Positions 23,596 through 43,257 of a stretch of DNA of 64,000 bases are shown one piece after another. Source of the stretch: Narcine bancroftii (Eukaryota); NCBI RefSeq assembly GCF_036971445.1, contig NC_091471.1, forward strand, positions 119,598,001-119,662,000, in the 5' to 3' direction. Every line of letters begins with the position of its first letter. Position 1 is the stretch's first letter. Below the pieces are notes generated by a model, which saw only the letters and a program-made list of their open reading frames with translations, was not told where the DNA came from and ran no database searches. A program made the position numbers and the translations under genes.

Positions 23596-24564
23596 AATTT
23601 GAAAAGTGCTGCCTGAAAGAATAGTGGAAGAAGATTCAATAATAATTTTAAAAGTGTATTTTATAAACTCTTGAAAAATAAATGGAGTAAGAGCAGGTTG
23701 GACAATAACAAAGTAGTTATTTTTTAAAGGAATATTGCTACATGATATAATGTGGTTACATGATATAATGTCATATTTAAACTTAGAGAAAATTTGATGC
23801 AACATTAAAGACAGAAAGTTTCAATTTCAAAAGATGTGGAGCCCATTCATAGAATACTATCATTTGGTAGATTTAAGTAATTTGGATGCTCTGGCGATTC
23901 TCTGTCTGGTGTCTGAAGGTCACTATTCGATTCATATCTTTTTTTTACATAAATTAACCTTGATTAGAGGAAGGGGCTAAATTAGATTTAGTTTTTTTTT
24001 GTGTTTTCACTTTTTTTAATTCATTTTTTTTAGATTAATTGATTATATACGGGTTTATTTATGGTTCTCCTAGATCACACATGTCAAACTCTGGCCCGCG
24101 GGCCAAATTTGGCCCGCAATATAATTATATTTGGCCCGCAAGATCATATCAAAAATGTATTAGAGGTGGCCCGCTGGCCACTGCGCCAGTATAGCGCATG
24201 CACAGTAACCGCTGTGTCCCAGGGTGAGAGAGAGAGAGAAAAATCCTGGTCCTTGAAAAGTAGTGGTGGGTGGTTTTATAAACACGCTGTCGTGTCCCCC
24301 CCGCCCACCCCCCCCCCCCACTGCAGCGCAGCCTGGCCGATGTCAGGGGAAGCCCCAAGGCCGCTTTCCAGCGCCCGGAACCCCAGTGGCACAGCGTTTC
24401 TTGGAGCTGCAGATGGAGTCGGGACGCCGGAGGGAAGATTGGGGCTCCCCGCCGGGCGATGGCGGCGCCGGCCGCCGGCCGCCCTGCACCTTCCCACCGG
24501 ACCAGCAGTGGGTGCCCGGAGTACACGTGGAGAGCGAGGCTGGATCGGGATTAGCCGCGCTCAC

Positions 24565-24630
24565 CTGTTCCTCCACCGCTGACCGGGATCCCAGCGCGGT
24601 CCTGAGCGCGGAGACTGCCCTGGAAAGGTC
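24565..24630 (-). pseudogene. Putative captured 66-nt exon (DLSRAVSALRTALGSRSAVEEQ in phase 0)
   Basis: Minus-strand acceptor CTCTTCTTTCCGTGCCGGTGTCCCAG|G and donor CAG|GTGAGC; length divisible by 3; no stops; CpG-rich. Confidence 0.55.
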
Positions 24631-24855
24631 CTGGGACACCGGCACGGAAAGAAGAGCAGGGTCCGTAGAACATTACAGATCAGAAACAGGCCCTTCGGCC
24701 CTTTGACTCTACCTCGTGAAAACCCAACACTGGAGAAACTCAGCGGGTTAAACCGTATCCTTTATCCAGCAGAGAGGTACCTGACAATGTTTGGCCCTTG
24801 ATCCCCCTCATCAATGTATGAGCGAAAGTCTGTGGTTCTCGTAAAAACACCAGAA

Positions 24856-25150
24856 GGGAGAAACTCAGCAGGTCAAAGGGGGTCCGGGAGAAACTCAGCA
24901 GGTCAAAGGGGGGTCCAAGAGAAACTCAGCAGGTCAAGGGGAGGGTGTCCGGGAGAAACTCAGCAGGTCAAGGGAGGTCCAGGAGAAACTCAGCAGGTCA
25001 AGGGAGGTCCGGGAGAAACTCAGCAGGTCAAGGGAGGTCCGGGAGAAACTCAGCAGGTCAAGGGGGGTCTGCCAGAAACTCAGCAGGTCAAGGGGGGTCC
25101 GGGAGAAACTCAGCAGGTCAAGGGGTGTCCGGCAGAAACTCAGGGGGGGC
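24856..25150. repeat. 30-bp minisatellite, about 10 units
   Basis: Unit GGGAGAAACTCAGCAGGTCAAGGGAGGTCC. Confidence 0.97.
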
Positions 25151-28029
25151 CTGACCTCGCCAGGACCGTTGCCCACTCCCCCTCCCTGCCGCAGGCCGAC
25201 CCGCGACTCACGGTGACGGGGCCGCTGATCCGCCGAGATGCCGCCCTGCAGCGAGAGCCGATGTCCCCGCACTGTCGTTGTCCAACCCGATCGCCCGCAA
25301 ACCCCACCCTCCCGCACACAGGCCTGAGTAAGTATTATGAACTTTAATCTCAGGATAAAACGATCTTCCAATAGTTTCATGTCACAGTGATAAATATATT
25401 CCTGGTTAAAAATGGTCCTGCACCTGGATACAAGCTCATTAGGCATAAAACTTGAAAAGTGTGTAAATCAAAGGATATCTGTACGAATGGAAAAAGGGCA
25501 TGGCAAATAACCCTGCAAGAGTTCATGCCCACAATCAGTCACCCATTTGATTGTTTCAGGAATCATGTTATTCTCCCACATTCTCAATAGCCCTCAGATT
25601 TTACTATTCGACAGCACACTAGCAACATTTGACAAATCCTCTATAGAGAAGTATTATTTATTGAATATTTTATTTCTCATTTGTTAATGCTTCTGGAAAG
25701 AGTTTATCCAAAACTATTATTAAACATTTATTTTAATAAGAAAAAGTTTAACATTACATATGTTGAAAGAAGAGAAAACATGCAGATGTTGTTGAAAATT
25801 TTCAATAAATATTTAGTTCGGCCCTCGACTTAGTCCAAGTTTTTAATTTTGGCCCTCCGTGAATTTGAGTTTGACACCCCTGTCCTAGATCATAATATCA
25901 AATTAGACAGATAGTACTCTCTGTTATGACCAATGCTTGCTATATTGTAACTCATTTGGTTTCTATTCAGAATTTTTTTTAAGAAATAATGTTTAATGAA
26001 CAATTATGTATGGATTTGAATTACATTTTTATTAATTTGTGATATGTAATTTTCTTTTTTATGCTATATTAGTAGTCTTTGTATGTAGGATTAATATGTT
26101 AAACTCAGTATAAATATTTTTAAAAAGAAAGAAATATTACAATAAGCCAAATTGCTTCTTTAGAATCATCTATGCAACTGTTCTGAGAATATCATTCTAT
26201 GTTAATGAGATTTTGACAAATTCCGTGCATTAATAATATATAGATATATATAGATATATATAAATATAAATATTTATTTATTTGTTTATTCTCCATATTA
26301 TTATCATAAAAATATGTGGACATCAATCAGCATTGCACAGATTTGAATTCAAATAAAATCCCTTAAATCCCCTTGAGCCGATTTAGTGAGTGGGGGTGTA
26401 GTATGCATATATATATAAAAGGAAAGTAAACAACCAATATGTTCCTTTTTCTATGCATCATTTTTATATCTTATTAATGACAGGCTTCAACGAATGAACA
26501 ATCTAACAAAAAGCAGCAAATGTTTAATCAAGTTTTATACAAAAATTCATGTGCTTTTCTTAAATAACTTCCACTTTGGTATGAGGTGTCATTTCTGATC
26601 TGTTTTCTATTTCCACACATCATTATCCTCATATTGCTCATTTGTTGGTCAACTGTGTAATCAGTTGTCAGTTTTTAGTGGATTGTTGATCGCTGGGAAC
26701 TGCTGTATGGTCAGAGGATGTTGATAGTTGGGATGGGTCCTGGTGTTAAGAGAAAGGGTGGTGGAAGGATTGGGGGGGACGTGGTTGGATGATTCTCTGT
26801 TGGGACAGGTCAAACATGGGTCTCAAACTTAGTTGGGATACATTTGGGAGCCTAAAGAAGTGCCTTCTATTCCCAAGGAGATTTACTAAATGAGCATCAC
26901 AAGAATGTGAAGAACAAGGTCTCAAGGAGCATTTAAGTTCTGCCTCTGAATGACTTACCCATGGACAGCAACTGCAATTAAAAATTATGAATGTCTCCAG
27001 CCATGCATCCCATGCTGTTTGGCATCACCATGCATGTTTCATGTTCTCTCATACTGTACATTGGCAGGCCATATGCATGGAAGAATGAAAATGTACAATT
27101 TCCAGTCTGTGATTTTCAGTAACAATTCCTTTTTTTTTTGGATATTGGAAAATAGGTGACACAATTCAATGTCCTCACTATTTTAAAGAATATGTATTTA
27201 TAATACAAAACTGTACAATTTACCTTGGATACCAGGGAAAAAGTTAATGCTGTCATAATTAAAATGGTGAAAGGTGAAGATCCAAATCCATGACAGAACC
27301 AGAAAATCATGGACATGGAAATGAATCAAAAAGAATTGCAGAGCTAAGATTTGGTAGGAGAAGGAAGGGATTGTAGTGGAAAATGCATAATAGATGACTT
27401 GAATTCAAAACAAATTGTAGATAAATGCATTTTAAACAATTATCCTCAGCTGGGCTTCAAATCTTCCCTCCCTTTATTAAGGTACATAATCTGTTCACCT
27501 CAACCACCTCATCCCCTGCCTCCCCCACCCCCGCACCAAAAGCAACTTTGTTTCACCACCCTCCCACCATACCTCCCACTCTCAACCCTGTCTGTTCCTA
27601 CTCCCCAAACCTTGGATCACATGTTGTCATGTTATCCAATTCTATCCAACTTAACTGCAAATGCTTCCCATTCCCTACAATCACTCCTGTCACAGGTCCC
27701 ATGCTCTTGGGATGACTTATCCATTTATAATTGGACATGGAAATCTGATGACTGTCGGATATGTCTTCCCAAGACTATTTCCAAACCCTAAATCTTAATC
27801 ATTAATGGACAATGTCCCAAATATACCTGCAGCCAACTTCCCAAATCCAGTCTTGGGATTCAAGTTTAAATAAGCTGGTGGCTACATCAGGCCTTGAAAC
27901 CAAGTGTATTCTGATGTGGTGAACAAACCAGTTATGACTCATTATCACCAACTCCCCTATGGGATACCATTTAGCATTCCCTATGATTCTGGATATTTAT
28001 TTCATGAAGGTAGAAATTAAGTAGGTGAT

Positions 28030-34441: not shown

Positions 34442-34701
34442 CAGTGGTTTTCAAACTGCCCCCCTAAAGTTACATTCCACCTTAAGTAATCCCTATGCCA
34501 TAAGTGCTCTGCTTAAGGTGGTATGTGAGTGGGAAGAAAAAGGATTGAAAACCACTGCTTTAATCATTCCTAATTGATTCATTAAGTGCACTGTTTCAAA
34601 ACTCTGATGGAAATGGACCAATGACAACTTTTCTCAAGCAAAATATTTCAGTAACAAATGGGTCTCGAGCAATGGTTCTCAATCTTCCCTTCCCAGTCAC
34701 A
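34442..34701. mobile_element. Composite hAT MITE, right end truncated
   Basis: Unit 1 CAGTGGTTTTCAA...TTGAAAACCACTG (34442-34557), 112-bp spacer, unit 2 starting at 34670 and cut off by CR1 sequence. Confidence 0.85.
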
Positions 34702-42996: not shown

Positions 42997-43257
42997 CAGT
43001 GGTTCTCATTTTTAAAAAAGTTTGAAAACTACTGTTTTAATCATACCTAATTGATTCATTGTGTGCACGGTTTCATAACTCAAAAGGAAATGGGCCAATG
43101 ACAATTTCTCTCAAGCAAAATATTTCAATAACTATTGGGTCTGGATCAGTGATTCCCAAGCTTCCCTTCCCACTCACATACCACTTTAAAAAATCCCTTG
43201 TTAATCACAGAGTACCGATGGCATAGTAAGTGGAAAGAAAAAGATGGAAAACCACTG
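42997..43257. mobile_element. Composite hAT MITE with TSD
   Basis: Perfect TSD CTCTAACT at 42989-42996 and 43258-43265; outer TIRs CAGTGGTTCTC and GAAAACCACTG; internal TIRs end at 43034 and start at 43147. Confidence 0.92.

Follow-up and report, generated by a model that had tools for sequence, protein, structure and literature searches.

The element at positions 24076-25882 of a 64,000-nt stretch of the Narcine bancroftii genome (contig NC_091471.1, positions 119,598,001 to 119,662,000; hereafter the window) very probably belongs to a young, non-autonomous subfamily of hAT transposons. This subfamily appears to be a multicopy Pack-TIR that took in 0.8 kb of a host CpG island, with a likely exon inside it, and then spread to hundreds of sites, likely with transposase supplied in trans; the spliced frame predicted inside the element is best read as a patchwork, likely without function. 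An earlier reading made from the letters of the window alone (the sequence-only reading) had proposed that a non-autonomous hAT element had captured genomic DNA in the manner of Pack-type transposons, and that it served as an exon-shuffling vehicle. The capture was confirmed by a donor locus free of terminal inverted repeats (TIRs). The exon-shuffling role was not supported, as the frame has no Met, shows no codon constraint, and draws its exons from different sources.

Capture of host DNA by a TIR element

The element spans 1,807 bp between identical 8-bp target-site duplications (TSDs), with TCCTAGAT at 24068-24075 and the same letters at 25883-25890 (both plus strand), exactly as the sequence-only reading had noted. 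Its ends had been called Charlie-type TIRs. Their hAT relationship stands, with the last 17 nt of the element agreeing at 16/17 positions with the right-hand TIR of a local family that encodes hAT transposase, but the two TIRs are imperfect and match each other at only 12/16 bases. The earlier description of about 1.8 kb without transposase was upheld by Pfam searches of 88 stop-free frames from copies of subfamilies A, B, C, and D, which gave no family above the cut-off and a single row below it (E 0.067). The interior is indeed rich in guanine plus cytosine (GC) and in CpG relative to CpG-depleted surroundings: GC reaches 71-72% and the CpG observed/expected ratio (o/e) 0.82-0.84, vs 0.21 for the window and 0.30 for the flanks of 29 copies. 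This interior does not align to the cargo-free subfamily E and so is not the native 5′ region of a hAT element.

Comparison among subfamilies resolved the structure of this copy, a member of subfamily A. The native left end (24076-24208, plus strand), comprising the TIR and subterminal repeats, aligns to E and is shortened, whereas the parent subfamily B retains 198 nt. Next come segment a1 (24209-24329), the second insert specific to A and found in neither B nor E, and a block of B cargo (24330-24382) that measures 51 nt in the family and 53 nt here. Segment a2 (24383-25146, minus strand), the captured host DNA, stands where B has 9 nt. It is followed by the GC-rich cargo of B (25147-25325; CpG o/e 0.82), common to B and carrying a GT at 25211; by the AT-rich cargo of B (25326-25640), which is not in E, C, D, or F; and by the native right end with its TIR (25641-25882, plus strand; inner limit about 25641), common to E and F. 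The cargo limits first proposed, 24270-25320, were too narrow, since only 24076-24208 and about 25641-25882 are native hAT sequence and the AT-rich block is also cargo. Two changes are private to this copy: a 52-nt deletion in predicted intron 2 and a 2-nt insertion near 24353, within the B-cargo block. We dismissed a likeness between 25511-25684 and an ATPase motif. The junction between cargo and right end (25639-25646) resembles the family's own target site, and copy L221 has another family member inserted there.

A junction-exclusion search anchored at the left edge of a2 yielded 13 places, one of which, G000:C5:192,434,054-192,434,896, matches a2 throughout and contains no element sequence. 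Among the 143 a2 loci examined, it is the sole place without any part of the element, and it is thus a TIR-free parental locus for 24383-25146, the one segment for which capture by a TIR element was demonstrated. The donor is a CpG island that adjoins a minisatellite array of 46 kb. It is 98% identical to the family majority, differing by 10 substitutions in 524 aligned non-repeat bases and by a 30-nt poly-C insertion. At CpG positions, the donor differs at 0/80 and the copies at about 9%; because the donor keeps its CpGs and the copies are losing them, the island was copied into the elements and not the reverse. A predicted intron, a LINE (long interspersed nuclear element) tail, a repeat piece, and a minisatellite are collinear at the donor, which indicates capture at the DNA level rather than a retrocopy. 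The left limit of homology at the donor coincides with the A/B junction, which had been defined independently. That left junction of a2 is blunt, while the right one lies inside a repeat unit.

We weighed whether the C5 locus might instead be a truncated A copy, and not the parent, whose minisatellite later expanded to 46 kb. Minisatellite length does vary among copies, with predicted intron 1 ranging from 294 to 824 nt, and some copies are truncated, among them L261 and L375. Nevertheless, the 400 kb surrounding the donor contains no B cargo, a1, or hAT sequence on either flank, save for a separate C-type copy 21 kb off and short repeat matches. The breakpoint is the A/B junction; beyond it the flank restores a full GT and stays GC-rich, with another strong exon-like unit, and no CpG decay is seen at C5. 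We consider a truncated copy at C5 extremely improbable and take the locus to be the source of a2.

Several features can be followed from donor to element, all on the minus strand unless stated. A predicted 66-nt exon (24565-24630), with an acceptor and a CAG/GTGAG donor, was copied from the host locus. It precedes a predicted donor-locus intron (24407-24564) that is 158 nt long here, 210 nt in the family majority, and about 240 nt at the donor, and a predicted 23-nt exon (24384-24406) that ends at the donor in a GT lost at capture. A LINE 3′ tail and a piece of dispersed repeat (24667-24768) are both at the donor and are missing in a short derivative of A, and a 30-nt minisatellite (24856-25143, no strand assigned) is the copied edge of the 46-kb array. 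The sequence-only reading had listed a CR1 tail, a Penelope remnant, and a minisatellite in this interval, and each has a counterpart in these contiguous donor features. The LINE tail matched at 8 non-element loci, one match lying directly behind an RVT_1 open reading frame; we presume it to be CR1. The putative Penelope remnant is a dispersed repeat present at 22 non-element loci, and Pfam gave it no retroelement label.

Splicing at the donor was predicted using a heuristic score of our own. On the strand used in the earlier reading, the island has two top-scoring splice donors in 650 nt, each with an acceptor (0.04 expected; 1/1,000 dinucleotide shuffles); the opposite strand has no top-scoring splice donor. 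The prediction comprises exons of 66, 23, and 48 nt together with a small pre-array exon, an ATG exon, and a terminal exon, and would give a 79-codon frame unlike the one first described. Judging from these signals, the 66-nt exon and the acceptor of "exon 3" are likely real host features. The array itself (G000:C5:192,388,200-192,434,340; 30-31-nt unit) seems to stem from a dispersed repeat. With a strong GT donor on one side and the 66-nt exon on the other, it likely expanded within one intron.

Copies, subfamilies, and sister cargos

The element is repeated across the 3.33-Gb genome, whose repeats resemble those of cartilaginous fishes. A whole-element search gave top matches 91-94% identical over the element on many contigs. 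Both ends were present at 54/60 loci (this copy counted twice), with TSDs identical at 44, bearing one mismatch at 9, and two at 1. These included 53 distinct full A copies with the same cargo and with TSDs that differ between sites. The last 35 nt of the right end have 3,889 exact matches in the genome, and as this exact 35-mer is present in 32/52 A copies, the lineage would number roughly 6,000 elements by rough extrapolation. The first 30 right-end matches on contig C1 were classed as B (11), C (9), D (5), A (3), and unclassed (2), from which subfamily A is put at about 390-520 of the exact right-end matches (interval 135-1,154); a search with the cargo gave 1,064 first-look candidates for A. 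The cargo-free subfamily E, about 680 bp long, has 759 candidates, and subfamily F, with another GC-rich interior, has 286. Divergence from the column majority at non-CpG positions is about 0.7-1.5%, a figure biased low as the sets were chosen by similarity. Among 44 A loci that were classed, 20 are short, having lost the LINE tail and repeat piece, and 16 are long. Termini and cargo compared separately with the genome thus yielded many copies, distinct TSDs, and several different cargos.

One pair of ends is common to subfamilies A, B, C, D, E, and F. Subfamily B has 198 native bases and then cargo; A is B with two replacements, a1 (24209-24329) and a2 (24383-25146 for 9 nt of B). In C, a short B remnant precedes the subfamily's own cargo, and the interiors of D and F are unrelated. 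As the cargo-free deletion derivative E and the cargo-bearing B and A have common termini, the order of events can be reconstructed, with cargo-free E followed by B and then by A and C.

The GC-rich blocks of five subfamilies (A, B, C, D, and F) have GC contents of 64-72% and CpG o/e of 0.82-0.98, and on this composition the sister interiors of B, C, D, and F were likely captured from host CpG islands too. Alternatively, these interiors could be pieces of other repeats, or of an autonomous element that was not recovered, instead of host islands. Their donors were not found, the first cargo bases of B include a 27-nt exact match to a dispersed repeat copy on contig C16, and D holds part of another small repeat; the 27-nt match hints that B itself may be a multi-template mosaic. 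However, the sister interiors align neither to the native 5′ region of E nor to any of 72 hAT transposase loci, are mutually unrelated save for the short B remnant in C, and have a CpG o/e equal to that of the block with a unique-island source. We therefore find an origin in repeats or in an autonomous element rather doubtful, and it concerns the sister cargos, not a2. Host islands remain our preferred source for all of them.

The lineage has the 8-bp TSD expected of the hAT superfamily, with a central TA preference. We take it to be Charlie/SPIN-like. As in such elements, the TSD is 8 bp with a central TA, and the TIR matches that of a local hAT family whose product has a Spin-doc zinc finger, DUF4371, and Dimer_Tnp_hAT (Pfam). 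Subfamily E also retains a remnant, a 32-aa transposase N-terminus that is 43% identical to the N-terminus of the local family. Unlike them, subfamily A is without transposase, and its cognate autonomous element was not found among the candidates scored.

Other arrangements were seen in the sister subfamilies. At nine distinct places (L182, L201, L216, L223, L228, L238, L245, L296, and L327), a D interior leads into a complete nested B element. This suggests a D+B composite that moved as one unit and from which D was later derived by deletion. Pieces of the small repeat that also forms part of the D interior lie in the window at 34510-34627 and 43015-43252. Some E elements (L212, L213, L187, and L191-L193) contain reverse-transcriptase LINE fragments of varied lengths at one internal site just inside the right end, and L212 has a 690-codon open frame; we assume these fragments to be RTE. 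Subfamily F (L214, L448-L476) carries a 22-nt GC-rich minisatellite of its own that varies greatly in length, in elements of 0.8-2.5 kb, and this is the second minisatellite travelling in the lineage.

The spliced reading frame

The sequence-only reading had joined three minus-strand exons across two introns, and its four splice dinucleotides are all present as described. Among the 53 copies, they are intact in 50 (GT), 53 (AG), 52 (GT), and 51 (AG). In this copy the joined frame is indeed open, as claimed, but that holds for only 21/53 copies overall, with 32/53 broken, and reading back as far as the upstream stop gives no Met. The C-terminal peptide described for it is not that of the family because of the private 2-nt insertion, 48/53 copies having 75 nt where this copy has 77. 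Changes in exon 2 fall on codon positions 1/2/3 in the numbers 17/40/27, with no third-position bias. A functional chimeric gene would have a start codon and a conserved frame under purifying selection, and neither was found.

The exons also come from different sources. "Exon 1", which lies in the GC-rich B cargo (25147-25325) and uses the GT at 25211, does not occur in the 400 kb surrounding the donor, and the 581-nt "intron 1" is consequently a fusion of two cargos. "Exon 3" consists of 23 nt of host exon, cut one base into the GT of the donor, and enters B cargo after 24 nt; the block at 24330-24382 provides most of it. The idea of one captured, spliced gene fragment is therefore retained for the 66-nt exon and intron 2, which are contiguous at the donor, and abandoned for exon 1 and most of exon 3, which are other cargo. 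Overall, the spliced frame is likely a non-functional patchwork.

Protein searches with three queries (the family exon-3 frame, the frame of the earlier reading, and a second frame around exon 2) returned nothing, which is weak evidence, and the spliced peptide as first described thus gained no homologue; PDB searches likewise gave nothing above the cut-off. Contigs from four sequencing runs, which are not on record as RNA and bear on presence only, being silent on expression, had 0/12 listed joints at 25212/24630 or 24565/24406. Joints 24382>25147 and 24171>25243 in those contigs match the genomic B and C junctions.

These observations bear on exon shuffling, in which copies would be transcribed and exon 1 spliced to exons 2 and 3, or the 66-nt exon given to host genes, to make functional chimeric RNAs or proteins. 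The near-complete retention of splice dinucleotides fits such a role, as do the two strong sites of exon 2 and its length, a multiple of three; furthermore, Pack-TIRs are often transcribed as chimeras, according to the accessible part of PMC8277862. However, intact sites are expected at about 1% divergence, and the missing start codon, the broken frames, the spread of changes over codon positions, and the CpG decay of about 9% all speak against constraint. Exon 1 and the tail of exon 3 are of another source, and no protein homologue was found. We judge an exon-shuffling role unlikely and read the inner frame as a by-product of successive cargos.

Mechanism, known systems, and neighbouring features

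The course of events that we propose begins with a break in a B element, caused by excision or by a stalled fork. During gap repair or stalled replication, a template switch would have led the copying strand to the C5 island, where the 46-kb array ends, and about 0.8 kb would have been copied before a switch back. The product would then have been moved by a hAT transposase in trans and amplified by cut-and-paste, and its copies may have been methylated and left to decay neutrally. The captured exon probably derives from a real spliced host transcript. The bias toward CpG-rich cargo could reflect open germ-line chromatin or a mobility advantage.

Some results weigh against the account given here. 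Pattern searches at junctions did not find the donors of a1 and of the B cargo: the a1 left junction, the B left junction, and the exon-1 region (25147-25325; one search judged by matched letters) each gave only element copies or chance matches. For the right cargo junction, a first search in which 72/86 matches were fetched and checked and the rest judged by matched letters gave no donor, nor did a second covering the best 100 of 124 matches, with 24 checked. The search for an F donor took 40 of 286 candidates, and all 30 loci checked were element copies. No cognate autonomous element turned up among 72 hAT transposase loci and two long-frame candidates, with the top candidates scored. In addition, the blunt left junction of a2 has no microhomology and points to no particular repair mechanism; the predicted donor gene had no homologue in protein searches, again weak evidence; and the predicted donor splicing comes from a heuristic score. 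Two candidate donors, L242 and L261, turned out to be an interrupted and a truncated copy, respectively, and a minisatellite on C29 was rejected as a source of B, having only 17 nt in common with it, which is chance level. At L445 (G000:C29:36.576-36.578 Mb), a 31-32-nt G-rich minisatellite lies in a CpG island beside an exon-like frame, which reads like the N-terminus of a cytochrome P450.

Multicopy Pack-TIRs of animals provide the closest comparison. The accessible text of PMC8277862 reports 370 Pack-TIRs in 100 animal genomes (208 hAT; 4 multicopy), with a high-GC bias in the multicopy cases, and proposes a model of template switching followed by transposition. Among its examples, Pack-hAT-N8_XT of the western clawed frog carries the CAPSL 5′ untranslated region and has 3 copies (5 in another case). 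The earlier remark that Pack capture is much less described in vertebrates needs qualifying in that Pack-hATs of vertebrates are already in this source. Like the cases in that text, the element has non-autonomous hAT ends, an unlinked parent that lies on another contig and is free of TIRs, TSDs that differ between copies, GC-rich cargo, and a history compatible with template switching and then transposition. It differs in that hundreds of copies share one cargo, the lineage runs to thousands, and capture was serial (B, then A and C). It is thus of a known kind, the Pack-TIR, at a copy number far above that of the vertebrate cases given in the accessible text of PMC8277862, whose filter (unique top hit) would likely miss families like this one.

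In plants, maize hATs form clusters of more than 100 elements, according to the accessible part of PMC8903248. Plant Pack-TYPE elements (Pack-MULE, Pack-CACTA, and Pack-hAT) as treated there resemble this lineage in having one pair of termini with several unrelated interiors and mosaic cargo. Here, by contrast, the host is a vertebrate, no captured protein-coding sequence was identified, and any chimeric transcript is putative. It is conceivable, though we think it less probable than not by a clear measure, that this hAT lineage equals the plant Pack-MULE at full scale, with at least five host loci, serial captures, and thousands of copies, that CpG-island cargo favours amplification, and that some copies lend promoters or the 66-nt exon to host transcripts. 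No comparable shark or ray case was found in the literature searched, most subscription papers and Repbase lying beyond its reach.

Helitrons generally lack TIRs and TSDs. Those of vespertilionid bats, such as HelibatN3 with the NUBPL promoter and first exon, reach about a thousand copies each with sequential captures, according to the accessible text of PMC4224331. They are like the present lineage as vertebrate DNA transposons that amplify promoter-proximal host DNA in sequential captures, and unlike it in being rolling-circle elements, the element here being a cut-and-paste hAT with 8-bp TSDs. One genome offers a traceable capture, ordered events, and thousands of young copies, and it makes two questions testable. 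One concerns the way TIR elements take up host DNA, given a breakpoint that borders a giant minisatellite. The other is the reason for the CpG-island origin of cargo at high copy number, a bias that has been reported for bat Helitrons as well. The contrast between donor and copies is, moreover, a natural experiment on the methylation of a moved CpG island. A new gene is not among the things that the capture demonstrates.

Around the donor island, the upstream neighbours are two homeodomain genes and NAGLU (Pfam). The homeobox genes, at G000:C5:192,351,700-192,371,000, are arranged in tandem on the minus strand, each three-exon-like, and adjoin NAGLU; they look Vent/Nanog-like. Downstream are exons that we take to be RNF167-like, a name that Pfam and PDB did not confirm. 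Promoter-like CpG-rich patches lie at G000:C5:192,440,400-600 and 192,446,500-900, at most 12 kb from the donor island.

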